Assembly: GCA_951804945.1 (NCBI GenBank)
Contig: OX638149.1
Location: 52,762,001-52,826,000, forward strand
Length of the DNA: 64,000 bases
From: Podarcis cretensis
Lineage: Eukaryota
Direction: 5' to 3'
Part shown: in pieces, positions 4,001-62,938 of the stretch
How the letters are laid out: every line of letters starts with the position of its first letter
How positions within the stretch are numbered: position 1 is the stretch's first letter
The notes under the pieces: generated by a model
Seen by the model: the letters and a program-made list of their open reading frames with translations, nothing else
Database searches by the model: none
Told to the model about the DNA's origin: nothing
Program-made: the position numbers and the translations under genes

Positions 4001-7000
4001 CTCAGTGTTCCTGGTTCCATGTTTGCTGAGTACAAGCACACACACCCTGCTGCTCCTGCCCAGTACATTGTGCCCACTATTACAACTTTTGGTGGCCAAG
4101 GTTCTCAGACTCCTGTCTGCTACTGAACAGTTAGTTCAACACTCTGTCAAAGGCATTTCTAGGCAAATTCTCCTAAATTCCCTAGCAACCAAATGTCCAT
4201 CTACCTGGATTCAGTATTAGCCTGTTAACTCTTATCCATTTGACCACAGCCTACAAACACTGGTTCAAAACAAATCCCATTTGACACTGCCTATGGCATC
4301 GTATAGGTACACTAATGTTTGGGGGACATGGAATTGAGAAGAGACATGGGGACATTATATGCGCCAAAGCATGTACTATCAAGACATGATTGATTTCACA
4401 CACAGTTCACCAATGCATTAAGCAAGCCATGGCGTGGTGTTTCCTGTGTGGTTGCATGTCTATATGTGGAAGGTTTATTGAAAGTATTTATAAAGGAGTA
4501 GGCTGATTCCATACAGCTTTGACAGGTAAGAAATCGGTGTTTTAAATCTTCCCAGTTGCATTTCCCTTGCATTTCAGCTTCTGCTTTCTCACTTGTGAAT
4601 TTCTAGAGCAAACTCTGTCCAGTTTGTGATGAATAGGTTCCAAAGTGTTTTTTGTTTCTCTTAGAAGACGGTAACTACAGCTTCTATGATCACCACTAAG
4701 ACACTACCTCTTGTCCTGAAAGCAGCAACAGCAACCATGCCTGCCTCCGTTGTGGGTCCAAGACCTACAATTGCCATGGTGACTGCCATCAATAGCAACC
4801 AGAAAACTGTCCTTAGCACTGATGCACAGAACACGCCAGTCAACCTCCAGACAACAAATAAAGTCACTGGTCCAGGAACAGAGGCAGTTCAAATAGTGGC
4901 AAAAAATACAGTCACATTGGTAAGTGGTCTTTGTTGCCTAATGTTCTAAGGGTGTGAGCCATTTTTTTAAAAAATCCCTTGTTGAAACAGAGATGCATGC
5001 CCTTTGGGGCATATACAGGTATTGAGAAACTTTGTTTAATGTGAGAAAATAGTTTTGCTCTAATGGGTTTCAATTTTTAAAATAATTTACTACTTTAACA
5101 AATGATTACTATCATATCATACTTTTCCTTGGTGTGCTGAAAGATAATTGACAACGCACCTTCACTCCAACTTTTTACAATGCTCTGCTTGCCAATAAAG
5201 GCATGTAGGACCATGCATGGACTTACCTTATGTAGGCTATGGTTTTAAATGTATGTTCCCTTCACTGCTTATATTATAATTATTTTAATGAGGCTCACCA
5301 ACGTTGTCTATTTTTTGCTGCTGCTGGATCCACAAACACATCATCCTGCATGACGGGATCTAGCCAGCATCTTCCTCAACCTGCGAACCAGTCTTTCTCA
5401 GGGGCGCTTTTGTGACCAACTAGTAACTCTGATAATCAGTTTCACAAAGTACTAAGCAGTTGAAGCCCGCAGAAATGTAAAAAGTAACTTGAGTGGAAAA
5501 TATATCCTTGTGAGGGAGGCCAGGCATTTAAATGGAGTTTTGCTGTTTAAATAAGAATTGATCCAGAGCTGCAGCTGTAGTGAAATCCATTTATACCCTA
5601 AAGTATTTCATTCCCAAAGCAAATTACTGTATATGAAAACAGTGTTCTACACATTTAAGAGAGAACCAGAGTCCTAATGTACTAAATTATTTATCTAGTA
5701 CCTAACACTTATCCTTCCAGCATTTTTGAATATTATTGTTTATGCCCTCTTATCAAATATTTCAAACCATCCCCCCAAGTTATGAAGCCTTAGCACAATT
5801 AAGCATCATGTGCAGCTCCATTTGAATGGGCAGCCAAACCTGATTATTCTTTGTGGTTATTTGTAGCGCATTGACTCGTAAAACAAAGAGGAGAATTCAG
5901 AAATGTCAAGGATGAGGGCATATTTTTAAAAATAGTAGAGTTCTTGGGTTTTACATGCTGGTGAAACAAAAGGATACTTAGCTTCATTATGCCCATGAAA
6001 TGCCATTTTATTTCAGAATGGCTTGAAGAGCAAGAATCTATTTACTGTGAGAAAGGTAGGCTGTGCCTGAATAGCTTTGAAGTTGCTTATCACACCTATT
6101 CCCTTTGCTTAAATTTGTCTGCCTTCCCACCCGCCCCACTCTTATTGTTAGCAGGTTCAAGCTACACCTCCTCAGCCCATCAAAGTGCCACAGTTCATCC
6201 CTCCTCCCAGACTCACACCTCGTCCAAATTTTCTTCCACAGGTGAGTTTGTCCAAAACAGGAAAAGGGGTAGGAGTGGGGAGTTTGTCCTAAAAGTGTGA
6301 CTTTGATTGGAAGAAGTACAACACCAGATGTTTCGTATACTTGGTAATAATTGAACACTAACTAATATGCTTTCCAGATTAAATCTCCAGCTTTGCTATC
6401 ATATTTTTGTTTCCCTGTCAGCTCTCTACCTTGCACTAGTTCTGTAAGAACTGAATTAAAGACGAGATGATGAAGAAATGCCTTTCTTGTTAATAACCTT
6501 TATATTAATAACCTGAATATTTTTCATAGTTTCTTTGATTAAAGAGACCCTATTTAATGTGAATCCTTAGCCTTTTTGCTAAGCAAAACGTAACTGTAAT
6601 CTAATTAATGTAGTTTCTAGCTTCCTGCTCCTTTCTTCCAAAGAGGAGCAGATTTTATCTAGAAATAACTTGAGCTGCAACTTTTTGAAAAAAATCTGAT
6701 CTTTTACCCAAAGATGAAGGCATTATGTAATAGATTGTTTGCAGTATTTTAAATTACTAGAATTAATTTAGTTGCTCTTTCTCAGAGGATGCCATCTGTA
6801 TCTCATTGAAGCTACATCTCTTCTCCTACCCACACTGTTGATTTTTAATGTAGTTGTTATTCAAATTCCTAGTTGTAATGTCAACAATCATTACCCAGTT
6901 ATGAAAGAGAGGAAAGCGTGAAAATATTAACTGCTGCACTATAGATATGCCCATCCAATGCTCTAGTCACCTGCATTTAACCCAAAGAAAGTTAGATGGG

Positions 7001-10000
7001 CTCAAAAATGTAATCCCTGATTGGAGGAGAGGGCTGTGTAATTCAGAAACTAGCTACTCTTGCCAACACAGTTGATCTAATAATAAATTAGAATGCATAG
7101 CCATTTGTATCCAATTTAGACACCCTAGATTTTAGAAATACTTCAAATTAACAGACCTTTGAATTCCCCCAGATCTATCCAAAGATATTTTGGTAATGCA
7201 ATTGTATTTGATAACCTGCTTAGACTCCCCTCAACACTCAGTATTCCTTGAGAATATAGCATTGCAAGTTGTGCTTCCAGACCTGTGCTTCCAGAACCAG
7301 TATATCCTTTTAAAGTATGATTAACATTGAATATGTGAAGATACAAAATGAACATACAAAATGTAACATACAAAATGATGGCAGTATTGTAGAAATGTAC
7401 AAGAATGTGTGGTTAACATCTGCGCACTAGCAGTTAATGCATAGTGCAGCCATCACTAGCCTGGCAACTTTCAAGTGTTTTGGACCACAATTCCCTTCAG
7501 CCACAATCACAATGGGATATTGTGAAGGAGAATGAAAATTGTAGTTCAAAACCTCTGGAGGACAGTAGGCTGTGGAAGGCAAACACAGTGCAACAGTCAT
7601 AGCTGGAATTAAACAAGATTTGGGGTGGTTTTAAAAGTGTGGTAGGCCTGAAATGTATGTGAGGGTTACATTCCAGGGATCTACATGCAAAGACAAAATC
7701 ATTCAAAGTCAGGAAACCACACACCCAACCTGGAACTGCCTTCCTCTGCAAATAATTCCTACCCATCTTGATATCGGCAAACTGAGCGGGCAAGATCTTG
7801 GGAGCCTAGCAGAGCCTTCCTGGACCCTCATGCAACCTTCTGAGAGTCCTATAAGTAAGGCAGAGGGCTTAAAAACTCTTTCCATGGCAGGAAAACTGGG
7901 TGCTGAAAGAGCCTTGTTTTCCAGGCTTTGGAAGGTCACATGAGGGCTCTGGAGGCTTTTGTGAGAGATTGTGTGGCCCCTTCTGATGGTTTTTTCCAGT
8001 CTCCCACCCGCTTTCTATTTATTTTTTGGCGAAGTATGCTAGGCTGCAATTGTGTAAGTTTTGGGCCTACTGTAGTTCTTTCCAGTGCAGATGTGTAGCA
8101 CTATATAATACAAACACTACTGTAATCTGAGTCATATTTGTTGGCACAGCCATAAGTTATGTGTTAAGTACTATATCTTATCTATGCATGTAGTCTGATA
8201 TGGGTTTCTCTCTCTCTTATGTAGGTTCGACCTAAACCTGTTGCCCAGAACAACATTCCTATCGCCCCTGCCCCACCTCCTCCTATGCTCGCTGCTCCTC
8301 AGCTTATTCAGAGGCCTGTGATGCTGACAACAAAATTCACACCCACCTCCTTACCTTCCTCTCAGAATTCCATACACCCAGTCCGTGTAGTGAATGGGCA
8401 AACAGCAACCATAGCCAAAACTTTTCCAATGGCACAACTCACCAGCATTGTTATAGCAGCCCCAGGTACCAGGCTTGCTGGACCTCAGACTCTACAAATC
8501 AGCAAACCAAATGTTGAGAAACAGGTATTAGTAGTTTAAACTGTGAATTGTTTCCTTCTCCTAAAGTCAATAGAGATACAAATGCAATTAACCATAACAT
8601 AAGACCTGTCCTCTCATTGCCTCTCCTGTGGTTAGCAATCTTGTGTGACCGAGAGCAGGGGCTGTGCCCACTAGCCCTTCCATACCAGCCATCCCATCCC
8701 CTTCCACCACCACTTAGACTATCCATATGTTGGAGAAACCTGGGCAGGCTCCCTGCACAATTTGGAATAGGGATGGGTGGATCAGTCCATTTCCAGCCTG
8801 TGTCCATTTCCTGTGTGTGCTCATAGGTGCAGTCCATCCTGTTTCCATATTAAGCTGAGCAGTTTTTAAAAGACTGTCCAAAACTCTGCATTTAAATACA
8901 TAAATACATAAATATGTATTTTAATATCAAAATATGTATTTAGTTGTGTATTTTCCAAACTGGCGTTTGGAAAGCCTATTTTATCCTAAAGCAAATTCCC
9001 ATTTTTTAACGCATTTTGACACTTTTTTTTTGAACCAAGAACAATATTGCAAAATTTGGAGAAGTGCAAAATCCAAAGTATAATTTTGTTTCAATCTGTT
9101 TATTTAGTTTGGGAGGTGCATTTGCTTAAAAATGCAGGCCAAGTGAAATATTCCTGCATCCCAAATTTATAATCCTGATTTCACTGGATTCTATATCACA
9201 GGGGGTGGATACACATATAGGGTAGGCTCTCCTGTTCAGAGGTTTCTTGCAATGTATGGATGGGGCAGGGTTGGCAGGAGAGGACGCTGGTGGACAAGCC
9301 AGCATGTCACAGCACTGTTCTCTGTCTCATGCCAATCGTGAGATACAATGTGTGAATAGGGATGGTTGATAATACCTTGTTCCTCAGACAGGGATTGGGA
9401 ATGTACCAATAATTCATAATGAGTGAGCAGTTAATTTGTGATTTTATATATAGTACATCAGAATAATTAAAATTTACTCGTTTTGTGCTTTTTCTGCTGC
9501 TTCAGCATAAAACATTAACCATCAAATAATATTTATCCATAATCTTGCTGACATTTATGATGAGGCAGACATGCAGATGACTTAATTACCATCAGTTTCA
9601 GCTAACCTTTTGTAAGTAGTTTATAACACTGGACATTTGAGAATTTCCTCTAATTCCATCTATCAGATGTAGGCCTTTTTGTGCAAATGCACTTTAAACT
9701 GACCTTTGAGTCTACTGATCAAAAGCTTGCTTGGTTTCAGTCTTATAAGCTTGACAAATTTGCCACGAGCGGTTATTTTTTAAGTAGACAGAAGTGTGTC
9801 ACCTTTCCCCCCAAAACTTACATTATCGTCCTCTCTTCAAAACACTCTGAAGCATATGCAAGGTGATATGGCACTGCAAGAGGTGGTAATGTGCCAAGAC
9901 TGGCCACAACTCCAGACTTCATAGAAGCAAGGACCTTCAGCAAAAACCCTAGTGCTTAAATGTGGAAGAAAAGCCTATACATAGTACCAGTGCAGAGAAA

Positions 10001-10133
10001 CCGCCTTTCAGCCCTTATGTACTGAGGAAGGCTGCTTCCAGTCTGGTCATGGCTTTTCTTGTCATAAATAGGCAGAAAGTTTTCTCAAGTGTGAACAGAG
10101 CCAGACCTCTCTTGTCCACTTGCCAGTCTTAGG

Positions 10134-10174
<41 letters not shown>

Positions 10175-12073
10175 ATTTATTTATAATAAAAGGTACACCC
10201 TCCTACTTTTATTTTCTAAGGGAGATGTCCAAAGTGGCCACCATCATTTCAAATAAAACAATTAAGAAACAGGGTTTCATCCTCACTTGTCAAACCACTG
10301 GTCTAGTTTGCGCAAACCACAAACCATAGTTTAGTGTTAGGTTCTTGAGTTTCCCCCTCTGCTCTTCCAGCACAACTGCACTTATAGTTTTAGTTGTGGT
10401 TCATCCAAACAAGCAAGTAGGATCACACAGTCTAGTAAATGGGACCGAGAAGTAATGCAAAATAATTCACAATTTCAAACAATATGGTTCAAGTTATTTC
10501 TTCATGTTTCTCTTATTTCTGAGTGAACACATTGAAAACATATTTGTCATCTTAGAACAGATGGATCTAATTTTGTGACGTCACAGCTATGTCATAAAGT
10601 GGGAATCATTGGGCAGGCACTTATGATGCAATCTGCAGGGGATTATGACATCACTAAGCGAATGAGTTTCAGGAAAACCCAGCACTTGGGAATTCTGGAG
10701 AACTTATCTTCAGGCAAATTCTTGTTATAGTGAATAATGAATGAGAGAGATGCAAGGTGCATCTCTCAGACAGATTATTGTCTGGACAAGCTTTTCATGG
10801 AATGTTATTTCACAAAACGTTCTGCTTACCAGGTCTCTCTTATACGTAGCCCCTCTTATCCACAGCATGGATGCAAAGTTATTATTATTACATGATCTAG
10901 TTGCTGAATTGGGCTACTTAAGTGTTGCAGTTGTACACTTGATGTTCTAAGTAGTAATTTTTATTTGGGATTGTTTTCACTACTTAAAATTTACCACACT
11001 TTTTAAAGGAGCTCTTGGGGACAATATTTAGTGTATTGTTCGGATTCATTTCCATCCTTTTCTTCATTTTGGTAAAGAAAAACACTGACTGCTGTTTCTG
11101 TTTGTTTAGGAATTTAAGAAACCCATTACAGATAGGTAGCCGTGTTGGTCTGCCATAGTCAAAACAAAATAAAAGAATTTTTTTCCCCCTTCCAGTAGCA
11201 CCTTAAAGACCAACTAAGTTAGTTCTAGGTATGAGCTTTCGTGTGCATGCACACTTCTTCAGATACCCGTGTTCACTTGCTGTTGTTTCCCTTTCAGACC
11301 ATCAAGCCCCAAGCGGAAACAGAGGAGAAGCCAACAGAGATTCATACAGTTGCTCCTCCTGCACCACCCAAACCAAAACGAGAAGAAAACCCACAGGTAC
11401 TAGTACAAATATCTACAATATCCTTTTGTGGGGTTGGGCAGATTAAAAAAAAAAAAAATCTTTAGAAATGCTTATTTTCATCTACATTTTAATGCCACTT
11501 TTCCTCTTAAAAGAGATTCACATTCTTCACAGTGTTATTGCTGCAATGAAGAGGTCTATATGTCTGAGGAATGCTATATCTAGCCACAAATTCCTGTTCA
11601 CCAAATATTTTCAGGGCTGGAAGAAAGAATGCAAGAGCTCCTGACCTTATGAGAATGATGCATGTATGTAGCACTTAAGGGTGTTCAAAGTGCTTCATGT
11701 TTTCTTAGTAATTTTTACAATAACCCTGTAATGGAGGCCCCATATTCCAGAAAGGAGGCTGAAAGAATCTAGCCTTGCTTTAAGTTCTTGTCTAAGGTAA
11801 GGCTTGAACAGTGGCTTTTCCAGCTCGCTCTACTGTGCTATATACATAGAAATCCCAAATTGCCCTTAGCTCTTTTGAGTGTTCAGACTGCATCACGCAC
11901 GGCAACTTCTCCAATCCCACAGGCACATTTTAAACATGTTTCGGTTGGCCTTGTTTGGCTAAGGAAAAGTTGTATTCGCTGGCGCCTTGACTGCCCCTCC
12001 CCTTTGCAAAGGTAGCATGGGGGCTTAAGGATGTCCCAAGAGATTTTGTGCAAGGATGCCCAATACACTCATC

Positions 12074-12115
<42 letters not shown>

Positions 12116-15100
12116 CTTTCGTGAAGGCTGAGCATGTCCTGACACCTCGGCTTGAAGGTGCTCCAAGTCTCTCCAGCCCTCCCTTCCCAGGCCTTTCATG
12201 ATGCTGCCCCTTCATAACCTTTCCTGTTATGAAACACCAAAGATGAACATACACCCTGTGAAAAATCTCTGCCAACCTAGCAGTTCGAAAGCACCTCCGG
12301 GTGCAAGTAGATAAATAGGGACCGCTTACCAGCGGGAAGGTAAACGGCGTTTCCGTGTGCGGCTCTGGCTCGCCAGAGCAGCGATGTCACGCTGGCCACG
12401 TGACCCGGAAGTGTCTCCGGACAGCGCTGGCCCCTGGCCTCTTAAGTGAGATGGGCGCACAACCCCAGGGTCTGTCAAGACTGGCCCGTATGGGCAGGGG
12501 TACCTTTACCTTTACCTTTACCTTTATAACAAATAATAAGACCCAAATTATATTCACATAGTAGATCTATTGGACTGGTACATGTTTTAATACCTATACA
12601 AATTTAACAATAAAGCTACAGCTCTCTGGTAACCATCCATTTCAACAAATAGGGTTTTTGTTTAATCAAGCTCCTGAACATTTGCATCATGTAAGTTTGA
12701 AAATAACACATTATAAATAACATAAATGCCTGTGGATTTATTTTGTTTTCTGTGGAACAATGACACATTTAAGTGAGTGTGTGAAGGTTCCCCCAGCTGT
12801 TAGAAAATAGAGATTGGGTGAGTTTATTCTTTCCTTGGGTGAGTGGAGTTATAATAGCATTTCAGACAGCTTGTTTTCTATGAATACCTGCAACTCAGAA
12901 AAATACTTCTGATGAAATGGACTGTAGTCCACAGAAGCTTCTACCATAATAGATTTGTGAGTCTTCAATGTGCCACAATTCTTTCTCTTCTTTTCTTTTT
13001 CTTTTTGTTGCAAGAGGCTAACATAGCTATCACCCTGCAAATCTTTCAGATAGCGCAAGTTAAGAAACCTGGATTCTGGCAGCTTGAGCAACACACAAAA
13101 TCAACTGGAACTAGTGAATCTCCCTTGGGGCCCATTTAGACAATATTCTACCATCAAAATTCTGATTTTTTTTTTAAGGGGGAGATCTTGGTTTCCCTCT
13201 CTGCACAGGGAGAAGATATTAAATGAGCCAAGAGAGTTCACTTTTTACTAATTTACTTAGTATTGTCAGAATCTGAAATACTTTTTTGCTCCACTGTGGC
13301 TGTCCTTTTGCAGTCCATGTGATTCATATACAGAGAAAGGGAATGAGGCCAAACATTGTCACACAGGTCTAGTCTCTTGAATTCTAAAACATGGTTCATG
13401 GAGTTAAGAAATCATAGATTGCAAATACTTGACCTGAACAGTTGTGCTAGATGAGATGAAAGTGAACTACTGCTTTTTGAATCTCACGGTTCTCATGCCC
13501 TAAAACTTTTTATAGCAGTCTAAGAATTGGCTGTCTCTTTAAAATAGATACATACAGCTGTGATGTTCTGAGCAAACAGCTTATGCAGCAATCATCTGGA
13601 CAGTTCAGAAATCCCTGTTTGTGCTGGAAGGCTTCCATGTTTTCAGGTTTTGAGTAATCTCCAGTTAGATAACTATGGCTTGCATAATTCAAATCACACA
13701 ATGTTCTGTTTTCATTTTCATAAAGTATAATGTTATTTATTATTTTATTCATTTATACATTGCTTGATTGTAAAAACAAACAAACCTCAAAGCAATTTAC
13801 AAAATGATAAACCATAAAATCATGAGAATTTTACAATATATCTGATACACATGCAAGTTTATACAGGGATTTTTTTTAATTTTTCAAATTAGTTTTGAAT
13901 GGACAGCAAAGGCCTAGGGTGCAGCTGAACTGTTAGGTGCAGAGTTGGGGGCTATTTGTAAATAGTGGTCAGAGGAAGCTGAAATGCAGAGAAGTACAGA
14001 CAGTGTATCTAATTAGCAGTGGTAATTCACAAAGCAGTTGTTGGTAATACAGACATCCTAGCATAGTTATGCTAATTATCTTACTCAGTATGCTAACAAA
14101 TATTTCGTCTTAGGTCAGTCCACAAGTGATAGCAATGTGCTTGAAGTATTGTAATTCAGCAGTTACAGGTGCAGCTGGTTTTAAATTGGTGTTCCTCTGC
14201 AGCAACACTCGTGTCTGCATCTTTTAACTAACATGTCCATGCTTCTGGGAGCCCTGGCCTAGTCAGGCTTTAGGAATCACCTATATGCATCTATGTTGTC
14301 CAGCCTTTATGAGGTTGCTGTAGAAAAAACTAATGTACCTGCTGCATAAAGATTTCTGTGTAAAGAGTGGAGCTGCCTTCAGTCTCATAGATCCACAGAG
14401 ATGAGCTTGCCAACCCTCCTCTTTGAACTAAGGGATATGCAAGTTGTATAAAGATACATAGTGCTGTTATTTGCTTCATTTTATGAAGTGCCATTTGAGA
14501 TATACAGGTGATGCATGTTTTTGAAGAATTGCTCAGTGAAAATTGTATCACTTTTTTTAAGCTACTATTTCACCTTAAAAGAAGTTTAGTTCCTCTCTTA
14601 ATTTGATTGAATTGTTTTCTTCTTTTCTGATACAGAAACTTGCCTTCATGGTGTCGCTTGGACTGGTTACACATGACCATCTAGAAGGTAAGAAAAATAA
14701 CTATGGCTGCAATCTTTGCACACTATCAAGGAAAAAGTTTATTTAACTTAATGGTTCTTACTTCCAAGTAAATAAGTTTAGGATTGAGCTGCATAAATTC
14801 CAGAGCTCTGGAATTAATGTACAAGTTTCAAATATTTCTGCTTAGAGTGCATACATTCCCATGTATCAAAGTTTAAAATATCAGTTTTATAAAGTGAAAT
14901 ATTTTCTGTTCAAGGTTCTGGGTTGTTCCCTGGAGTTGAAAAAATGACCAAATAGGATGATGATCCTAAATGCTAGTCTTATTTTTAGGTTTCTGACTAG
15001 GAGATCTAAGGCCACAAATATGGTTTCTTCAATAGCAGAACCACCACAGTACTATTTTTCAAATAACTTAATTTCCTTTAACAATTAATTAGCATATTGT

Positions 15101-19500: not shown

Positions 19501-22500
19501 ACTAACTTCTTCTCTGTACTACATCACTTCCTTTTTTTCATGCTAGCCAATGAGGAGCACTGGCCAAAGGTATGTAAGATTATTTCCCCTCCCCTTTTTG
19601 TTCCCTTTTGTTAATGTGTAGGTCGTCCACCTAAATACAACACGGTGCTGGGGTTTGGGGCTCTGACCCCCACATCCCCTCTGTCCAGTCATCCTGACTC
19701 CCCTGAAAATGAAAAGACAGAGACCACATTTTCTTTCCCCGCAACTGTTCATCCTGTGTCCCTGCCCAGCCCCAGCTCCACAGACGTAAGTAATTCTTCC
19801 TGAGAGGTTTGCTGTTCGAAGAGACCGTGGAGACTTCAGAATTTGGTTCTTTAGATGCACTGGTATTATGGTAAACTGCAATAATATGACCCCCTTCTTC
19901 AGCCCCCTACACTTCTACTTGTACCTATTCACCCCCCCCCCAAACTCTGGAGTAGTATATACAGTATATATCTATATGATATCCACAGGACATGCCAGAA
20001 TGTTCATATCCTAGAATCATAGAATTGTAGAGTTAGAAGGGGAAATATTTCAAAGTTCTGTAAGCCCTTCCCAGATGCACAGTGAAGCAGTGAATTAAAG
20101 ACAGTGCATTTGTGATATATTTCAGCAATCTAGTGGCAGGAGGAGAACGGATCCTGTCACACAGAAGCCTTAGGAACAATTATGTATTATTACTGAATCA
20201 ATAAAGTAAGGAGAAATTCTTGCTCAAGATAGTTGGACACAGCGTTAGTGGAGTCAGAGTGAGTGCCTTCACTGACACCTGGCAGTTGCTTCTCGTTTAT
20301 GGATTCTGCATACCTATATGGGGGAAAGTTTTCTTTTCTGTGAAAGTATCCTTCTGGTATGTGAGCCCAGTTGCCTATTCTGCCAGTTTAGCACAGGCTG
20401 TTGCTGAATTAAAGTTGATCTAACCCATAGCTTGATCTGCAGCACTGTCTGTTTTTGGAGAGTGTGGGTGGTATTTTTTTATTACTCAGAAGGGAGGTAA
20501 ATCCATCCTTCTCATGATAGGTGGGTTCGAATTGGAAGTTCTGGACTCACAACCTTGGTCAAGTCTCATCACTTCTCTGTACCTTCGTTTCCTCATAATA
20601 AATAGCTCCATGGTTGTAAGACCCAACTAATGAACACATTTTACACACAATCAGACTTGCATAACTTTTATCTTCTAGTGGGCTGCACTAGATGTTCCTC
20701 CAAACTGTTTTTTATGCTGCTGAGCTAAGAGCCTCTGCATCTCATTCATGAAATATGCAGCTTGAGGATTGCTCTAACTTACATAACTGTATCTGTAGCC
20801 TCATTGTTGAAGCAGCCAAGAATAGCCAAATCAGGAACACCATCAGTATCTTTTCTGCACTGCTGGGTATTGCAAAAGATAAAATCAACAGGCAGCATTC
20901 CTATAGGATGCAAGTTCTGTGTTAAGAGCCATAGTCATTCATTCTCTAGGTATTGTATTATTCATGAAATCTCCCAAACTATCACAAGGCAGTAGTAAAA
21001 ATTGATCCAAACAAAGAAGACTTTCCTGCTGATTTAGCATGGCGTGCACACATGCACATGAACACATTCTACTTATAACAGGTTTGACAAAGGTTGCTAG
21101 ATTCTTAAGCACATTTGTTTTATAAATAAAGCACTAGGACAGTGAGCTCATTGTCATTCCAGTTGATGTCTGTTGCACATTTTTACATAATGTTCTGAGC
21201 TTTCGGTAATGATGTAATTCTGATTAGCCATCAGCCTTCAAGCCTAGAGTGTTTTGTTAAATATCCATCCACCAAACATGTATACACATCACATGAATGT
21301 ATTGCTTCCTCCAGAAATTCACCTCCTATTTCACTTCAGTGGTGTGTGTTTTTCGGAGAATTTATGGTAAATAGGTTTGTTTTCAGTTGTGTCCCTCCAC
21401 TCACCGAAGACTCCTTAATCCAAAATAGGATTCCTTTAATGGAATGGGGGCAGGCATTGTTTGCTGATTTCCCCCCATCTCTCTGCAGTCCGTAGACCTT
21501 CCCTGGTCTGCTCCAAAGGATTGTGGAGGTTGATGGGGCAGGTGGCCCCCAGAAGATAATGAAAACTGCTTCCCTTCCATTCATGGAAACCTCTGCTAGT
21601 ACAGAGTATTGCCCATTAATGGAGAGAGACAACTGAGTACAACCTTCTGATCTTGTTAGCTTCTGAATATCTTTAACTTCCATAATCAGTTACTCAGATT
21701 AAGATGCTCATTAGGTTTCAGCTCCACTTCAACAGGCACTCTAGGGCTAGGATGTGGGATCTGTGGCCTTCCAGATGTTGCTGTGCTCAAACTTTCATTA
21801 GTCTTGGCTAGCACAGCCAGAGGTCAGGGGATTTTGTAAATTAGTTCAGCAGTATTTGGAGAGCTACATGCTCTCCACCCCTGTTCTAGGGAAACCTCGT
21901 TGTGTTTGTCCTCCATGCAGTCACAAAATACAAGAAAAAAGTTGGCCTTTTGAGTTTGGGTAGTCGTAACACAGGGACGCAGGTGGCGCTGTGGGTTAAA
22001 GCCTCAGCGCCTAGGACTTGCTGATCGAAAGGTCGGCGGTTCGAATCCCTGCGGCGGGGTGCGCTCCCGCTGCTCGGTCCCAGCGCCTGCCAACCTAGCA
22101 GTTCGAAAGCACCTCCGGGTGCAAGTAGATAAATAGGGACTGCTTACCAGCGGGAAGGTAAACGGCGTTTCCGTGTGTGGCTCTGGCTCTGGCCAGAGCA
22201 GCGATGTCACGCTGGCCACGTGACCCGGAAGTGTCTCCGGACAGCGCTGGCCCCTGGCCTCTTAAGTGAGATGGGCGCACAACCCCAGAGTCTGTCAAGA
22301 CTGGCCCGTACGGGCAGGGGTACCTTTACCTTTACCTTTTAGTCATAACACTTCAAGAGATACATGAAAGTTTAACTCTGTCTGTTGAGTGGACAATATG
22401 AAACTGGCTGTATTATTATAGATTGAACTACTTTAGAACCCAACAATGCTCAAGTCACAGGGGATCCAACCCTGTTATGTTTTGTGAAACTCATCTTAGC

Positions 22501-25500
22501 TACTGCTACAACAACTACTACTACAGAGTAGTATGACTGACTTAAAAGCTGGTTTTCATTAAGTCCCCCCCTTCCCCCCATAATTTGAACATTGGAATCC
22601 AGCACTCATTTGATATGTAGAACTTGCAAAATCAAAGCATCTTTACATGCCAAAGTCAGGATAGCACAGTAAGTTTAGGAATTAATAGAGAGAGGCTTGG
22701 TTTTCAAAGTCAAAGTTTAAGCCTCAGCTAATGTTTGTGGGTAATATACTCCCACCCGCCCGTGGTTGGTATTCTGGCATCATTTAATATGTATTCTTAA
22801 TAAAGATGGGCACATTAGCATGCTATGTAAGGCAGTAGAAAACATCTGGCATAATTCAAATCCTACCACTGCTCAGTTTGATATGGAAGATTGAATTACA
22901 TATTTTAAGGAGGCTGTGACACTTTTATTTCTTTCAAATTTTATCCCTCTATTCTGAATTTGAAGGAAGCTTTAGAGATTGGGATTTGGATGTAGCAATT
23001 TTCCAGAGCAGCCCTCAGTTGATTGAAATTCATGTATTAAGCCATTTTCTGTTACCTTATTTCTGTTCTTTTTTGCTCTTCTTCTCTTTCTGCATTTCTG
23101 TACAGAGATCTACAAATAAAAATAGTAACTATGAGATGGTAACGGCAGAAGGAAAGAGAGAAAAGGAAACTAAATGGCTTTGCTAAGAATTTTGCATCCT
23201 AAAGTGAAGAGATAAGGAAGGGAAAGTAATGCAAAGAGTCATGCAAAACTGACATGTTCTTGCTATTAAAACTAGTACTGGGGCCTTTGTTGACATTTTA
23301 CAGCTGGGGATGGTGTTTTGTGTTAGTCTGGTTTGGTCAAGGTTTTCCATCTCTTCTATCGAAAGGCCAAGTTTACGTAAGATAAATCAGAAAAAGTATA
23401 CCTATTTCTGGATATTGCAGTGATGCACCAAGGTTAAAGTTATACTAGGCTTAAAGTGGTGCATTAACTTAATTTTGCAAGCAGTGCCTTCTACTTCCAA
23501 AATATTGAAAAGATGATGGCCCATGAAACACATTTCTTAGGAAAGAATGTAGCTACCTTAAGAGGTAGCACCCAGGTGAAATTATGATTATGCTCATGCT
23601 AAGCATGCCCAAGGCTAGATTCCATAGCCTTTTGCAAACAATAATTTTATTGCACAATATATATGTAGATCTTACTCATATTTGCAGAGAATCCAGGCAG
23701 GCTTTTTCCTCAGTGCTGTTCCCCAGATATCACATTTTGCCAACGTGTAGACCACAGTTCTTTTGCCAATAGAAAGCATTAATTTTATATTTTATCTCTG
23801 GCCCCCACCTGCCTAACCCATCCCCTTGCTTTCTTGTTTTGATTTGGCGTGTTGTGTGGAATGAGGCTGTACAGATGTCACAGGCACCTAGAAATGGCCA
23901 TGACTTCACTGCTCACAATCAGTACAATTTTCTGCCCCTATAGCTGTGCATATTTTGCTTATTTGCTTAGAGGCTTATCAATCCAGTGTGGTCATATAGC
24001 CATTGAAAATAAAGACATACAATAGCAGCAGCAGCCACCACAGCAAATCTCTCTTATCCATCATGGTTAATGATATCAGCTTTTATTCCTTGTATATGTG
24101 TTAGTTTCACTCCTCTCCAGCACTGGAATATTCATATTCACTATTTGATTTATGTACTCTGTCCCCAAACAAAATAAGCACCTCAGTATAGTGAGCTCCT
24201 AGTGTTGGATCGGGCTACTAGTGTTGGATTTAAATTATTAGTTGCTTCCTACAAAAGTCTCTAATGGAGCAATCCTAACTATAGAAAGCTAGCATAAGTA
24301 ATGCTGGCATGTTACAGTGGCAAAAGTTACCCCTATTCCAAACTCAGTTCAGAAGGAATAGGACACTCTTTGCCAGCTACATTGGCTGGGCTGCTGGGTC
24401 ACTTGACTGAGCCAGAAGGTGTTTGGAAGAGGTGTAAGTCTCTCCTTGCTCTGCCACATCTCCAGAATGCCCCCTTCTGGGGGGAACTTGTGCTAGTGTA
24501 AGTGATACCGTCTTAAGATCCACCGGCTGAGCACCCATTGAGATCTGCCATATCCAAATTCTATCATCCCAATGGATCCTAGGTTTCAATTACACTGCAA
24601 GTGACTTACAATCTTTTAGTTTTTAACTTTTTTGTAACAAAAAACAGAAGCTAAAGCATTCTGCACTACCAGGGCCACCTGTCCCTCAAGTGACAGCAGT
24701 GGATACAGGAAGACACTCAGACTATGGACCTTTCAGAATGAGTCTCACCCTGCCAAGAGCAGATTGCATGCCATTCACCTGGTCAGAAGATCCACCTGCT
24801 AATCCCTCTTGGCTGAATTAAGACTCATGTCATTGGTCCTCATCCAGTTCATTATCATGACAGGTCACCAATCAGCAGGTCCACTGCCTACCTGCAGAAG
24901 ATGACATAAGAGCTGTGTGTCATCAGCATGGTGATGACAGCACACTCTCAGACGCTGTCTAAACCCACCCAGCATTAAGTTAAACGTGGGTGACAAGTTC
25001 TGCACCTCCTGGAGAACCGAACCTATTGCGGCACTTTAAATATGTTTTCCATACAGTGGATCACTGGGACTTTCACCCCACATTTAATTTCACTTACTTG
25101 AAAATAAGATGGGTGTGATTCTTAACTATATAAATAAGTGATCTGTGCTTTATAGTTTGAAATTGTACTAGGGTAGACATGGTGGCATTTGAAGAAGCTG
25201 TGGCCCTTGATGTTCCTTGTGGTTCTTTTCTGTCTGAAGAAAGTGGATCTAGTCGTCAGGCACCCTTTGGTAGCTTTCTTTCTGTGTTTCATGAAAAGGA
25301 TATTATTTTGGGGATTTCATTCACTTAGGACTTTACTTTGAACTGGAATTTAGTTTTCAAAGTTTGTAAGTTCCCTTTCCCCCCTCTAATTTTATAGGGT
25401 GATATCCATGAAGATTTTTGCAGTGTTTGCAGGAAAAGTGGGCAGTTGCTGATGTGTGACACGTGCTCACGTGTGTATCACTTGGACTGTCTGGACCCAC

Positions 25501-28459
25501 CTCTGAAAACTATTCCCAAGGGCATGTGGATCTGTCCCAAATGTCAAGACCAGGTATTGTTTGACACAAAAGGGGAAGCCTCTCGCAATGGTTCTCTGCT
25601 TTTGACAAAATGGGTGGGGCACATGGCTTAGACTTTGAGAGGGTGAAAATATCTGACCTGAACGGAAATGGCCTCACAAATTCAAAGCCATCAAACGTTT
25701 GCTTTTCTGTTCCACATCTCAGGGTACTAAACAGCCATTTATTTGCCATAGCAAAGCTCGAAGACTTACGGGGAAGATTCCCTTTGATCCACTTGCATCT
25801 TTATCTATTTCTGCTGCCACAATATATATATATATAATGTTAGCTTCATTCTACAATACATGTGTTGGAAAGTCCAGTACAGTATTTTAAGGTCTAGGAC
25901 AAAGCTACATGCTGGAAAACCAATGTTTGCATGATAATGCAGGGACACAGGGCATTTTACAGGTGAGAGTTAGCAGGCATGAGATAGATGCTAAATCTTT
26001 CCCCATAGCTGGCTTTGAGAGCAAAATAAGCCCAGCTGGGGAGGAACGTTTTGTGATGAATAACCACATGATTAAACACCCGTCTCCCACCCACCAATTC
26101 TCTTCTGGAAATGCCCCGCTACTCCTGCATTGCTGTTAACCAACAAACACATTTGTGGGAAATGCATGTTTGCCAAAGTAACATGTAGTTTTCTCCACGG
26201 AGACTGCTCTTTGCTATCAGAGTATTTTTCCTTTAGCTAATTAGATCAGCAGTTTGTGAATCATGAAGTCACAATCCTCTCTACTGGCAAGTTTTAAGAT
26301 CAGATATGTTGTCTCTTCATTCCTGTTCAGCTTGTTAAAATTTCATCAGCAGAAAATGTTTGTAGATGCAAGGGAATGTACAAAATTGCTGACATGGTGA
26401 TTAAACAGGCTTCCCTTGTGGGAGGTTTAGCACAGATGTGTGAGTATTTCATGCTATTAAATCTTGAGGGTCTTCCCAAACTATTGTGGAGGTTTTTGTG
26501 TGTGCAGTAAATGCAATGTTTACTTTCTTGAAGTGCGTGTTGAGTTGTGGATCAGGCATCTTTTTTGGATAATGCTTCTGTTGAGGAATTTCCCCAGTAC
26601 TCAAACCTCAGTATTCTTTTGCTTGGAATTTCCTTCCCCCCTCCCCGCTCCCCATTTCAGCATACTATTTTGAGTGCTGTGTATAAGCTGGTTGTGAATA
26701 TCACAGGCACATATGTTTTAGTGATTATTAACACAATTCCCCTTCTTCCTACTAGTGCCTCACTGTTTTGTTATCCATTTAGGGATTTTTATTTTTTTTA
26801 ATTAATTCTTTAGGGGCTGAATGCTTGCCTGCTGAAACAACCAAGCATAGAAATGATCATGTAATTGCCTTCATCTTCTTTTTTAATGTAGACTTTAAAG
26901 CAACAAGGCTACCCTTCCTTACCATTTTATGAAATTTGTGTTTTTTATTTAGTTCTTGAAAGGTTACGTGTTATCCCCATGCACTTGATAGCACTGCAGC
27001 ACAGTCTTCCTCTCCCTCCTTTTCATATGTGGATATAGTCTGGTTCATTTCTTTATCCCATTGGCCTCCCACATCCATCACATGTCAACAAAGCATCAGG
27101 CTTCTTGTCCCGGACCAGAACTAACAGCATCCCAAGAGTAGAACAAAGGGGAATTTTAAGTTGTTTTATTGCCTGGGGAGGGCCTAAGAAGAGAATGGCA
27201 TTGATTTTAATAGTTGTTGTGAAAGAAACCCTTTAGCGTGTGTCATCTTTCCTAGAGGTAGAACACGTCAGCCAAGTGTTCCTTCTCCTTTCTTTCAGAT
27301 GCTAAAGAAAGAAGAAGCAATCCCGTGGCCAGGAACTTTAGCAATTGTTCATTCATATATTGCATACAAAGCAGGTAAGAAAATGGTGCAGGGCTTGGCT
27401 TGGTTTTCTTTTCTTTGGAAAATGTTACTTTGAGGAAGGGAGTAGGATGTTTGTTTTCAGAAGGAAATTAAGAGCTGACTGAATGATAACCCCAGTAATG
27501 AAATGGATATGACAGCTTCATCTGACTCTCTTTATGTCTGCACCTGCAGCTTCAGGTATGGTCCAGTACTGGCTTTCCATTGTGCAAAAGCAGCTGAGAG
27601 ATCCCATCTGCAGGGCATAATTGATACATCTGATGTACTCTCTTTCACAGCAAAAGAAGAGGAAAAACAGAAATTACTGAAATGGAGTTCAGATTTAAAA
27701 CAGGAAAGGGAGCAGCTAGAACAGAAAGTCAAACAGCTCAGCAATTCTATAACAGTAAGTATTACTGTGCTAAATGATGGTTTGTTTATCCTCTGTGTTC
27801 CACTAGAAGCTACAGCCGTGAATCTTAGAAAATGACTGTTTACTGTGACCAATCACAGTATCAGTTCTGAGCCATGCTTCACCACAGCTTTGCCGTGGTG
27901 GTGTTTTTTAAAAGTCTCAGCGGCTTCTTATGTTTGTTAGAGCTTCTTTTTCTCTGCTAAGTCATAGTTGTAAGCTATATGCTGTAGTCGTGGCTGTGAA
28001 ATAGCATTTGCTTTCTTTGAACTCTTTGGTTTGCTATGTGGGCTATATTTGGTATGGGAGCCATGTTGTATCCACCAGGTGCTTTGACAAAGAATCTGTT
28101 TTTGCAGTCTCTTGTGGATCTTGGGATCCCTTTGCTTTCTCGTTTGGGCCTTTTTTTTATGAGCGCACTCATTAATGCAATGTCGTTCCAATCTGCTTCA
28201 GAAATGTATGGAAATGAAGAACACCATCCTGGCAAAACAGAAGGAAATGCACAGTTCATTGGAGAAGGTAAAACAGTTAATTCGCCTCATCCAGGGCATC
28301 AACCTTTCAAAACCCATAAACTCTGAGGGCAGTTCCGTCGCCATCTCCAATGGCATGGACTCCACCAATAACGCAAAGGCTGCCGCCGCCTCCACCCCAG
28401 CCTCTTCCCCCTCCCAGAGCTGCATGGTGAACTGTACCAAGGGCGACGAGACTAAATAA
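863..28459 (+). CDS. PHF21A: PHD finger protein 21A (BHC80), 5'-partial spliced CDS: join(863..1036,4665..4919,6155..6241,8225..8524,11298..11396,14636..14687,15981..16060,16610..16670,19622..19785,25398..25553,27299..27374,27651..27754,28202..28459)
   Basis: Exon translations closely match recalled vertebrate PHF21A ([11 protein letters not shown]..., TRKRGRPPKY AT-hook, [36 protein letters not shown] finger, C-terminal coiled coil). All junctions are GT-AG and phases join into an open 1866-nt frame. The N-terminal exons lie upstream of the window. Confidence 0.97.
2295..2506 (+). mobile_element. degenerate tRNA-derived SINE (Squam3-like)
   Basis: gggaaagactcctgcctggaa...tggtctgacttcatgtaaggcag resembles the recalled squamate SINE consensus; heavily decayed. 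Confidence 0.45.
4665..4919 (+). CDS. PHF21A: PHF21A coding exon ([12 protein letters not shown]...KNTVTL)
   Basis: ttag|AAG acceptor, TTG|gtaagt donor, 255 nt. Confidence 0.95.
6155..6241 (+). CDS. PHF21A: PHF21A coding exon ([10 protein letters not shown]...NFLPQ); alternative start 6152 through a NAGNAG acceptor
   Basis: tag cag|GTT tandem acceptor, CAG|gtgagt donor, 87 or 90 nt. Confidence 0.93.
8225..8524 (+). CDS. PHF21A: PHF21A coding exon (VRPKPVAQ...PNVEKQ)
   Basis: gtag|GTT acceptor, CAG|gtatta donor, 300 nt. Confidence 0.95.
10135..10172. repeat. (AC)n microsatellite
   Basis: Read directly from the sequence. Confidence 0.95.
11126..11268 (-). mobile_element. Penelope-like element (PLE) pseudo-LTR fragment
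   Basis: The minus strand reads ...ATCTGAAGAAGTGTGCATGCACACGAAAGCTCATACC...TTAGTTGGTCTTTAAGGTGCTACTGG...AGACCAACACGGCTAC, the layout I recall for reptile Penelope terminal repeats. Confidence 0.8.
11228..11267 (-). ncRNA. minimal type I hammerhead ribozyme motif
   Basis: GGUAU-CUGAAGA-A-GUGUGC(AU)GCACAC-GAAA-GC-UC^AUACC: stem I, CUGANGA core, stem II, GAAA, palindromic AGCU in place of stem III, and a UH cleavage site. Confidence 0.82.
11298..11396 (+). CDS. PHF21A: PHF21A coding exon ([11 protein letters not shown]...KREENPQ)
   Basis: tttcag|ACC acceptor, CAG|gtacta donor, 99 nt. Confidence 0.93.
12076..12113. repeat. (AC)n microsatellite
   Basis: Read directly from the sequence. Confidence 0.95.
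12269..12526 (+). mobile_element. 5'-truncated Sauria SINE
   Basis: Near-identical to the 3' ~260 bp of the full copies; (ACCTTT)n tail; no clear TSD. Confidence 0.9.
14636..14687 (+). CDS. PHF21A: PHF21A coding exon ([17 protein letters not shown])
   Basis: tacag|AAA acceptor, AAG|gtaaga donor, 52 nt. Confidence 0.95.
15981..16060 (+). CDS. PHF21A: PHF21A coding exon ([27 protein letters not shown])
   Basis: ccaag|AA acceptor, GAG|gtaaca donor, 80 nt. Confidence 0.95.
16518..16552. repeat. (TG)n microsatellite ~60 nt upstream of a PHF21A acceptor
   Basis: Read directly from the sequence. Confidence 0.95.
16610..16670 (+). CDS. PHF21A: PHF21A coding exon ([20 protein letters not shown])
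   Basis: taaag|CGC acceptor, GAG|gtaggt donor, 61 nt, ends in phase 1. Confidence 0.95.
19547..19569 (+). CDS. PHF21A: PHF21A alternative (neuronal-type) microexon encoding ANEEHWPK, mutually exclusive with the AT-hook exon
   Basis: TACTAAC branch point at 19500-19506, long pyrimidine tract, tgctag|CC acceptor, AAG|gtatgt donor. 23 nt, phase 1-0, the same phases as the downstream exon. The peptide matches the recalled mammalian short isoform. Confidence 0.92.
19622..19785 (+). CDS. PHF21A: PHF21A canonical AT-hook exon ([13 protein letters not shown]...PSPSSTD)
   Basis: tgtag|GT acceptor, GAC|gtaagt donor, 164 nt, phase 1-0; completes the RKRGRPPK AT-hook. Confidence 0.95.
21745..21883. mobile_element. 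old palindromic MITE-like repeat
   Basis: ctgtggccttccagatgttgctg...cagcagtatttggagagctaca inverted arms. Confidence 0.55.
21973..22339 (+). mobile_element. full-length Sauria (Squam1-type) tRNA-derived SINE
   Basis: Pol III A box (GGTGGCGCTGTGG) and B box (GGTTCGAATCC), (ACCTTT)n tail, 12-bp TSD TAGTC(G/A)TAACAC at 21961-21972 and 22340-22351. Confidence 0.93.
23106..23138 (+). CDS. candidate PHF21A in-frame cassette exon ([11 protein letters not shown])
   Basis: ~60-nt AG-free pyrimidine tract ending tgcatttctgtacag|, ATG|gtaacg donor. 33 nt, no stop, phase 0-0 inside a phase-0 intron. No transcript evidence. Confidence 0.4.
25398..25553 (+). CDS. PHF21A: PHF21A PHD-finger exon ([11 protein letters not shown]...WICPKCQDQ)
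   Basis: C4HC3 PHD motif; tatag|GGT acceptor, CAG|gtattg donor, 156 nt. Confidence 0.97.
27299..27374 (+). CDS. PHF21A: PHF21A coding exon ([25 protein letters not shown])
   Basis: ttcag|ATG acceptor, CAG|gtaaga donor, 76 nt. Confidence 0.95.
27651..27754 (+). CDS. PHF21A: PHF21A coding exon ([12 protein letters not shown]...SNSIT), coiled coil
   Basis: cacag|CA acceptor, ACA|gtaagt donor, 104 nt. Confidence 0.95.
28202..28459 (+). CDS. PHF21A: PHF21A last coding exon ([10 protein letters not shown]...KGDETK*)
   Basis: ttcag|AAA acceptor, TAA stop at 28457-28459. Confidence 0.95.
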
Positions 28460-38111: not shown

Positions 38112-49545
<11,434 letters not shown>

Positions 49546-53302: not shown

Positions 53303-53567
53303 CGCCTGCCAACCTAGCAGTTCGAAAGCACCTCCGGGTGCAAGTAGATAAATAGGGACCGCTTACCAGCGGGAAGGTAAACGGCGTTTCCGTGTGCGGC
53401 TCTGGCTCGCCAGAGCAGCGATGTCACGCTGGCCACGTGACCCGAAAGTGTCTCTGGACAGCGCTGGCCCCTGGCCTCTTAAGTGAGATGGGCGCACAAC
53501 CCCAGAGTCTGTCAAGACTGGCCCGTACGGGCAGGGGTACCTTTACCTTTACCTTTACCTTTACCTT
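53303..53567 (+). mobile_element. 5'-truncated Sauria SINE
   Basis: Near-identical to the other copies; 12-bp TSD TACAGAGCTGTC at 53291-53302 and 53568-53579. Confidence 0.92.
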
Positions 53568-57430: not shown

Positions 57431-57795
57431 TGGGGACGCAGGTGGCGCTGTGGGTTAAAGCCTTAGTGCCTAGGGCTTGCCGATTGAAAGGTCGGCGGTT
57501 CGAATCCCTGCGGCGGGGTGCGCTCCCGCTGCTCGGTCCCAGCGCCTGCCAACCTAGCAGTTCGAAAGCACCTCTGGGTGCAAGTAGATAAATAGGGACC
57601 GCTTACCAGCGGGAAGGTAAACGGCGTTTCCGTGTGCGGCTCTGGCTCGCCAGAGCAGCGATGTCACGCTGGCCACGTGACCCGGAAGTGTCTCCGGACA
57701 GCGCTGGCCCCTGGCCTCTTAAGTGAGATGGGCGCACAACCCCAGAGTCTGTCAAGACTGGCCCGTACGGGCAGGGGTACCTTTACCTTTACCTT
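57431..57795 (+). mobile_element. full-length Sauria (Squam1-type) SINE
   Basis: Near-identical to the 21973 copy; perfect 14-bp TSD TATAGTAGATCAGT at 57417-57430 and 57796-57809. Confidence 0.93.
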
Positions 57796-59197
57796 TATAG
57801 TAGATCAGTAGCAGATCACACACTTTGCATGTAACCCCTTCCCTGTCCATTCAATCATTTGAACCACCAGCTCAGGGTGATGCCGTGCAGAGGCAGTGCT
57901 GATTAATGTGGGCACCCCTGAACAGAGGCACCAAAGGCCAGTCTTCCATGAACCACCCTTCGCTGTTATGCACACACGTCCCAATATCAAGTTTTATTGA
58001 TTAAAAGCACGTTACCTAGCTATTGAGTGGAAACAGCGCCTTAGATGTTACCAATAACAAGGCAACCCCTGCCGGTTCTAATCTAAAAGATGTTTGAGGT
58101 TGGGAAGAGACAAGCAACGTCTGGCAGCAGCGAAGTTACAAAGTTCTTCCGATCAGCTTGAATGAGAAAGGGAGGGAGAGGAGGAGCCAGACATTAAGAG
58201 GTTCCCAGGAGGTGTGCAGCCCTGCTGGTGGGTCCCTTTTTTGTTCAGTCCTGTTCGAAACCCGCCACACACACAAACACACTCACTCATTCACAGAAGG
58301 GGTTTAGGAAAAGAGCGAAGAAGACCTAACCTGCGCCGCCCACCTTCCGCCGCGGCTTGTGAGTGAGCGGGTCGCCCTTCAAGGGCCAGTAAACAGAGTT
58401 GCTGGGAAAGAGGAACCAGTGAGCTATCGGGGGAGCGAATGCCGCTGCTGGGGTGCTTTCATACTAGAGAGCTTAAGGAAGTTTCAAGGATCCTGGAAAC
58501 CAACTCAATAGAGAGCGCGCTTTCACTGGATGCTGGGGGGCGGGGAAGAGTGTGGCTGGGGGTAGAATTCTGCACACCTCCGTAACTGCGCAAGCACACC
58601 GCCCCCACCCCCACCCCCCCCACCGCGGTGCCGCGCGCTCTGCGCCCCGGGGGCAATGCCTTCCGCAACCCTGATTACGCGCGAGGTAACAAGCAAGGAC
58701 GCAGCGCGATCTCTCGCCCACGGGGAAGCTGGTGGGAGGCGCCACCGGTGTTGCTTCACAGGGACCTCCGAGCCTCTGCATCTGGCCCGACGATCCTCTC
58801 CCCTCCTCCACTTTCCTTCCCACCTGCTGCAGGCGCTCCCAGCAAGCCCAGGTGTCCTTACCTGGCTCTTGTCCTCCGGCCGCCGCCTCCCCCCGGCCCT
58901 GAGCTTTGCGTGCAGCCCACAGACAGCAGCGCCCTTTTCTACGCTTCCTCTGCCCTCTTTTCCTTGCTTGCACACGCCTCCCTTTGGGATCAGTCACTTT
59001 CCTCTCCCCTCTTTTGTTAATTCCCGGAGCCGGGGCCTCCCCTCCCCTCCCCGGAAGGCGAAGAAGAACAAAAGGAAAGCCCACAAAAGGGGGGGAGGGG
59101 GGAAAGGTTACATTAACTTTCTGCTCAGCCATCGCAAAGTCGCCCAGGGCAAAGGGGAAGCCGCCTGCTCCGCCTCTCCTCGCCCCCCCCCCCTTAC

Positions 59198-62499: not shown

Positions 62500-62938
62500 C
62501 TAAGAATACAAGATGAGCCCGGCTGGATGAGAGCAAAGGCCCATCTAGTCCAGCATTCTGTTGTCATAGTGGTCAACCAATGCCTGTGGGACTGCTCCGG
62601 TGGGAAGGTAAATGGTGTTTCCATGCGCTGCTCTGGTTTGCCAGAAGCAGCTTATTCATGCTGGCCACATGACCCGGAAGCTGTACGCCGGCTCCCTCGG
62701 CCAATAAAGCAAGATGAGCGACGCAACCCCAGAGTCGTCCGCGACTGGACCTAATGGTCAGGGGTCCCTTTACCTTTTTAATGCCTGTGGGAAGCTTGCA
62801 AGCAGGACATGAGAGTAATACTCCTCTCCCGCTCATGTTCCCCAACAACTGGTAACCAGAGACATACTGCCTCTGACATTGGAGCTGATATATAGTCATT
62901 ATGCCTGGTAACTATCGATAGCCTTATTCTCCATAAAT
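62500..62938 (-). mobile_element. CR1-type LINE 3' end fragment (interrupted by a SINE)
   Basis: taagaatacaaga...ggcccatctagtccagcattctgt pattern typical of the reverse complement of squamate CR1 3' ends. Confidence 0.6.
62592..62779 (+). mobile_element. 5'-truncated Sauria SINE of a second subfamily, nested in a CR1 fragment
   Basis: Shares the GGGAAGGTAAA..GCTGGCCAC..ACCCGGAAG..AACCCCAGAGTC blocks with diagnostic differences; 13-bp TSD AATGCCTGTGGGA at 62579-62591 and 62780-62792. Confidence 0.88.

Follow-up and report, generated by a model that had tools for sequence, protein, structure and literature searches.

Minimal type I hammerhead ribozymes (HHRs) have been defined in the repeats of Penelope-like elements (PLEs) of metazoans, with a turtle and snakes named among the hosts (Cervera and De la Pena 2014; PMC4209133, cited throughout from the accessible parts of the article and its supplement). 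According to that work, most of these motifs are solitary copies scattered genome-wide, with about 9,000 of them in Xenopus tropicalis; a tested monomer was inactive, and dimers cleaved weakly. Their consensus comprises CUGANGAH, a G10.1-C11.1 pair, a long helix II, a helix I of 4-5 bp, and a palindromic 15.2-16.2. A squamate PLE, the Poseidon element PAc of Anolis carolinensis (Frangieh et al. 2024; PMC11167929, accessible in part), has its HHR in the pLTR, starts reverse transcription internally, and inserts into AT-rich targets from uncleaved RNA. The PAc HHR needs the element protein in order to cut, insertion in vitro does not require the HHR, and the accessible sections report no RNA-seq reads ending at the cut site. 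Animal non-LTR retrozymes (PMC7229834; bioRxiv 10.64898/2026.07.22.740005; both in part) are likewise short non-coding units with type I HHRs, derived from pLTRs, and have dispersed monomer copies. In the accessible part of the preprint, Xenopus families group with pLTRs, 1/9 Xenopus dimers cleaved, and a non-LTR retrozyme is defined by at least two tandem units with a complete HHR in each.

The window (the whole 64-kb stretch of lizard DNA that was analysed) carries a motif of this already described kind, and the locus holds a recent insertion of a short retroelement that is very abundant. Our best explanation, which we consider very probable, is that the insert is a passive, recent solo terminal-repeat (pLTR) copy of a Penelope-like family with a very high copy number. 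The coordinates of the motif, the insertion and the surrounding host gene are collected in Table 1.

Table 1. Features of the hammerhead motif, the retroelement insertion and the host gene, in window coordinates
Feature	Position	Strand	Basis
Minimal type I hammerhead motif	11228..11267	-	Sequence, descriptor scans, fold; consensus of PMC4209133 Fig. S3 (accessible part)
Core C3-A9 (CUGAAGA)	11256..11262	-	Sequence; published consensus CUGANGAH; unpaired A next, at 11255
Stem II, perfect 14-nt palindrome, G10.1-C11.1, 5 bp + CAUG loop	11241..11254	-	Fold and descriptor
G12 A13 A14 A15.1, palindrome AGCU (11237-11234) replacing stem III, C17 (11233)	11233..11240	-	Sequence
Stem I, 3' strand AUACC	11228..11232	-	Fold
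140-nt retroelement insertion, solo pLTR-like unit	11125..11264	-	Joint 11120->11265 in X6, X7, X14; depth 4-5 orders over flanks
Left copy of the 4-nt target duplication ACCC	11121..11124	+	Empty-allele comparison
Right copy of the target duplication ACCC, supplying G11267 and G11268	11265..11268	+	Empty-allele comparison
PHD-finger exon identifying the host gene PHF21A	25401..25553	+	Match to 2puy_A
Host intron, GT..AG, phase 0	8525..11297	+	Between in-frame plus-strand exons
99-nt PHF21A exon, starting 30 nt past the right duplication	11298..11396	+	Frame continuity and PHD exon

Read directly from the letters, the minus strand from 11267 to 11228 is GGUAU CUGAAGA A GUGUGC AU GCACAC GAAA GC UC AUACC. 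The boxes CUGANGA, GAAA and NUH are all present, and the complete core, UC site and AGCU palindrome that the sequence-only reading had placed on this strand match the letters exactly. The A at 11255 is unpaired between A9 and G10.1, and G11254-C11241 forms the G10.1-C11.1 pair; both fit the minimal-hammerhead consensus. As in the minimal class, helix I has 4-5 bp, helix II is long, and a palindrome at 15.1-16.1 stands in place of helix III. Going by standard hammerhead numbering, the RNA would presumably be cut between 11233 and 11232.

Folded on its own, the 40-mer forms stems I and II (-10.1 kcal/mol). In contexts of 143, 501 and 901 nt, the stem I pairs had probabilities of 0.79-0.99, and five stem II pairs had 0.97-0.99. 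The sixth stem II pair had a probability of 0.0, so stem II has 5 bp with a CAUG loop. G11267, which makes the fifth pair of stem I, lies within the duplicated target site, and the element's own contribution to this stem is 4 bp; G11268, in the same target-site copy, offers a sixth pair, G.U. Both pairs are assigned to host target DNA because the family contigs diverge from the reference beyond 11266. The 5-bp stem I and self-complementary stem II described earlier thus stand in amended form, the former with its fifth pair supplied by the host and the latter as a 14-nt palindrome that folds as 5 bp.

Among the examples listed in Fig. S3 of PMC4209133 (accessible part), the motif of Chrysemys picta bellii, GCAU CUGAAGAA GUGGG GUUUUUA CCCAC GAAA GCU U AUGC, comes nearest by eye, although it is itself not marked as PLE-associated. 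The turtle and lizard motifs have in common the CUGAAGAA core, an unpaired A before G10.1, the G10.1-C11.1 pair, a stem II opening with GUG..CAC, GAAA GCU without a stem III loop, and a 4-bp helix I. They differ in stem II, which in the lizard is a perfect palindrome closed by CAUG and in the turtle has a 7-nt GUUUUUA loop. The cut triplet ends in C in the lizard and in U in the turtle, and the lizard stem I, unlike that of the turtle, is lengthened by host target DNA. The lizard-type sequence is absent among the examples in the accessible part of that supplement.

The host gene was identified by a plus-strand exon matching the PHD finger of PHF21A (2puy_A, E 3.5e-33, 49/50 aligned residues identical). 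As the preceding in-frame plus-strand exon ends at 8524 and the next spans 11298-11396, the motif lies within the intron between them and antisense to PHF21A, as the sequence-only reading had proposed. The PHF21A pre-mRNA contains the reverse complement of the motif, without the catalytic core. Off the pre-mRNA strand and with no partner nearby, the intronic hammerhead most likely does nothing at this locus.

Four of 24 sequencing runs, one from the same organism (X1) and three from other organisms (X6, X7, X14), were compared with 10500-11900 at 80% likeness. The site is empty in 3/3 related organisms: in each, one long contig joins 11120 to 11265, skipping 144 nt, with an ambiguity of 4 letters. 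ACCC is present once in the empty allele and twice in the window; therefore, the insert comprises 140 nt and is accompanied by a 4-nt duplication. The letters 11265-11266 may also be element-derived, as a 2-nt microhomology. The run from the same organism yielded no empty joint, and its flanking contigs enter the insert from both sides. In that run, the contig depth was 106.8 on the left (10500-11140) and 55.7 on the right (11242-11900); a second right haplotype may be missing or filtered.

The flanks differ from those of the three relatives at 14/1257, 13/1257 and 24/1207 positions (1.0-2.0%). Given this low divergence and the empty sites, the insertion is recent; in principle, precise loss or an old polymorphism could also account for its absence in the three relatives. 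Under neutrality, all 13 core nucleotides would stay unchanged with a probability of 0.88-0.94 at half of the divergence (0.5-1% per lineage) and of 0.77-0.87 at the full divergence. An unchanged core is thus what neutrality predicts (~0.9), and intactness is uninformative on function: the motif looks intact mainly because the copy is young. The earlier suggestion that the intact core might signal retained activity loses its footing on these values and on the empty sites. Amniote genes also harbour ultraconserved intronic hammerheads (HH9/HH10 type), which are old, conserved, canonical and active. The window motif resembles them in being an intronic hammerhead of an amniote gene, but it is lineage-specific, minimal and antisense. 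A domesticated, conserved amniote intronic ribozyme was rejected because the orthologous site is empty in all three relatives.

The insert has a very large family. Between 5,988 and 12,509 family contigs aligned per run, and the summed depth over 11205-11251 was about 4e4-2e5 times that of the flank (4-5 orders of magnitude), a figure that is not a copy number. The family differs from the window copy at 11227 (T in 54-73% of the depth), 11175, 11221, 11225 and 11161, and in linker length; the window copy has the minority A at 11227, and its pyrimidine linker is longer than in many other members of the family. Among the 40 of 62 substitution rows listed, none falls within 11228-11267, and, judging by these rows, the family majority probably equals the window copy across the motif. 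The family may well be catalogued already in Dfam/Repbase.

Head-to-tail junctions (11264->11126 and 11267->11126) occur among the family contigs and not at the 11125-11264 locus itself, and opposite-strand joints were found at 11174/11222 and 11232/11266. Tandem and inverted junctions are the arrangements that PMC8557442, in its accessible part, describes for PLEs. Another tandem junction (11230->11126) is 2 nt away from the predicted cleavage site. The best-supported loose ends concentrate at 11126 and 11266-11267, with an agreement beyond them of 0.37-0.43; a few extra letters outside both unit ends are common to the family contigs, and the pile-up of ends partly reflects where the window copy stops. 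On the minus strand, the repeated unit has the hammerhead at its 5' end; we infer the unit to be the pLTR.

The motif would work like a PLE minimal hammerhead, and the family likely belongs to the PLEs. The sequence-only reading had called the insert a Penelope-like fragment. The fit to the minimal-hammerhead consensus and the high-copy mobile element agree with that description; a parent RT or GIY-YIG ORF for the family was not found in collections that are mostly prokaryotic or viral, so this blank says little. The 140-nt insert itself contains no ORF, whereas PAc is a full element whose RT-EN ORF begins at stem II (PMC11167929, in part). The metagenome scan gave one locus, L001, the prokaryote genomes gave 0 and then 13 loci, and the viral contigs gave 0 and then 12. 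All 25 prokaryote and viral loci were rejected as chance, since the matches did not extend past 16-26 nt. At L001 (3501-3538), the CUGAAGAA..GAAAGCUC motif is degenerate and its stems are weak; the likeness, 79.5% over 39 nt, includes the search pattern itself. The motif may be an old relic or chance, and the contig resembles vertebrate host DNA by eye. The exact motif had no match in a full-text literature search, which gave one paper for a lizard intronic case, and the accessible parts of the supplements of PMC11167929 and PMC8557442 held no matching element. Short motifs of the window element were likewise not found in the PMC11167929 supplements, which need not include the PAc sequence.

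On our preferred explanation, a passive pLTR copy, the PLE RT/GIY-YIG protein would nick an AT-rich target and reverse-transcribe uncleaved element RNA. Reverse transcription would probably start internally, just 3' of the pLTR, and run to near the 5' end of the RNA, a course for which the anole PAc provides an in vitro precedent. Units made in this way would be short, with ends that vary little and with the hammerhead intact. Any role of the hammerhead would belong to the parent element, whose tandem transcripts it would help to process weakly, as a dimer or aided by protein. A single locus of this sort matters little, given that thousands of such motifs per genome have been described in non-mammalian vertebrates (PMC4209133). 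The family is of wider use: young, with very many near-identical copies and dated by empty sites, it would be a test case for PLE hammerhead cutting in vivo and for core selection in the source elements.

A tentative alternative departs from this explanation in origin only. The family might be a dedicated non-autonomous, SINE- or retrozyme-like unit of ~145 nt, with its own master copies or tandem arrays and the PLE protein acting in trans, rather than a by-product of full-length PLE transcripts. Reptile retrozyme families, which derive from pLTRs and average 176 bp (bioRxiv 10.64898/2026.07.22.740005, in part), offer a parallel, and tandem junctions occur in the window element's family as they do in animal non-LTR retrozymes. 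That ends pile up at 11126 and 11266-11267 and that agreement past them is low would also suit a discrete unit; however, the pile-up is partly set by the ends of the window copy, and family contigs agree for a few letters further on both sides. Classical retrozymes, moreover, bear canonical, not minimal, type I hammerheads (PMC6765202, PMC7229834; both in part). Animal non-LTR retrozymes form tandem arrays, whereas the window copy, a monomer whose HHR is minimal, is a single unit that falls outside their definition by two tandem units. We regard a dedicated unit as possible, though as the less probable origin.

It is unlikely that the family hammerhead cleaves in vivo and leaves genomic footprints, with stem II pairing that delays cleavage or assembles multimers. 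The observation that would speak for it is the inverted joint 11232/11266, present in 3/4 runs (two contigs in X1, one in X7, one in X14 and none in X6) at roughly single-copy depth, and perhaps one shared locus. In this head-to-head joint, one copy starts within 1 nt of the predicted cut site and the other at the usual 5' end of the unit, and the 4-nt overlap expected from a stem I template switch is missing. The coincidence of a joint end with the cut site has a chance of roughly 8% by a rough count (two joints, four ends over 140 nt), and we treat the joint as a lead only. If cleavage in vivo were true, it would be evidence for cutting by a PLE minimal HHR, which was sought but not found in the anole element according to the accessible part of PMC11167929, and for a dimer mode other than stem III. 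It would concern the family, not the intronic copy.

An effect on the host through plus-strand splicing signals, not through catalysis, is quite improbable. On the plus strand, the insert carries a strong tract of pyrimidines together with AG at 11195/11198, and TAG|GTATGA at 11229 resembles a donor; these signals delimit a candidate exon at 11196/11199-11228. This putative poison exon of PHF21A would be 30-33 nt long and contain a stop, as in-frame stops occur in both candidate versions. The tract before the AG has 15-16/18 pyrimidines, against 15/18 at the true acceptor, and the long pyrimidine linker and minority A at 11227 set the window copy apart from much of its family in the direction of this reading. 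The downstream intron, however, would be just 69 nt, and the donor would fall within stem I of the plus-strand hairpin. With the insert 30 nt before a PHF21A exon, signals of this kind point to a possible lineage-specific change in splicing. An additional AG lies at 11261-11262, 35 nt upstream of the true acceptor.

Also quite improbable is an active ribozyme in an antisense transcript that pairs through AGCU with transcripts of other copies and has some effect on PHF21A. The core is intact, stems I and II form in context with the high probabilities given above, partners in trans could exist given the very many family copies, and motifs of this type cleave weakly as dimers according to PMC4209133 (in part) and a review. 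Against this reading, so young a copy allows no inference of selection, PAc shows no reads ending at its cut site (PMC11167929, in part), and the window contains no partner copy. A search of both strands of the window for a second hammerhead motif, with one core mismatch allowed, found none, the 330 N bases at 28.7-29.8 kb being unread. The match at 6757-6780, alike over 24 nt, did not extend and was not accepted as another copy.

The dimer itself was also modelled. For the 40-mer, two monomers had an energy of -20.2 kcal/mol, and the active double hammerhead, a stem III dimer, had -17.7 kcal/mol. A dimer through the stem II palindrome, in which stem III is unpaired and which is inactive as a pair, reached -35.6 kcal/mol, with a cofold minimum of -37.2 kcal/mol. 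On these energies, the palindromic stem III dimer, the cleaving form named in the reading from the letters, is disfavoured relative to two monomers and strongly disfavoured relative to the stem II duplex. Tertiary contacts, Mg2+ and co-transcriptional kinetics lie outside nearest-neighbour energies and, in a tandem transcript, would favour the stem II hairpin; cleavage could therefore still take place. Dimeric cleavage of such hammerheads is reportedly described by Lunse et al. An engineered dimer may be chemically competent, and so may the motif itself, with stems that fold in long context and a stem I that host DNA lengthens to 5-6 bp.

Finally, we asked how often such a motif arises in shuffled sequence. 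The loose, stemless pattern CUGANGA..GAAAGCUH had a single match in the window and at least one match in 7/100 shuffles. With a relaxed structural descriptor, 11228-11267 was the sole match in the window, and matches occurred in 5/300 dinucleotide shuffles. A strict descriptor (stem II >=6, stem I >=5, palindromic III), with thresholds picked when the motif was already known, matched 0/300 dinucleotide shuffles. The folding energy of the 40-mer is unremarkable (z -1.75; 13/200 shuffles equally good). The covariance-model search that had been suggested as a check did not recover the motif: the Rfam hammerhead families gave 0 matches at the gathering score in the window and 0 at E<=10 on 11100-11300. 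These weak folding and Rfam results, and a parent ORF not found in mostly prokaryotic or viral collections, would fit a chance resemblance in which hammerhead boxes happen to flank a palindrome in a non-PLE repeat, but with no strict match among the shuffles, every published consensus item matched and a closely similar turtle family, this is extremely improbable. The hammerhead motif is real.

The remainder of the window holds other features. Minus-strand frames at 38378-39966 match Pfam Glyco_transf_49 (dystroglycan glycosyltransferase; 2 of 6 frames scanned) and converge on the 3' end of PHF21A. We take this gene to be of the LARGE2 type, and PHF21A presumably has such a gene as its neighbour. 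Repeat families D1/D4 presumably resemble Sauria SINEs, and on that likeness the organism is probably a squamate. A SINE-like repeat that ends in units of ACCTTT has five copies (12269-12526, 21974-22346, 53306-53563, 57433-57803 and 62724-62777), several of them 96-98% alike, and presumably resembles Sauria SINEs as well. Repeats at 47513-47640 and 44903-45078 (I3, D14, D16), short and either inverted or paired, have the look of small non-autonomous DNA transposons.
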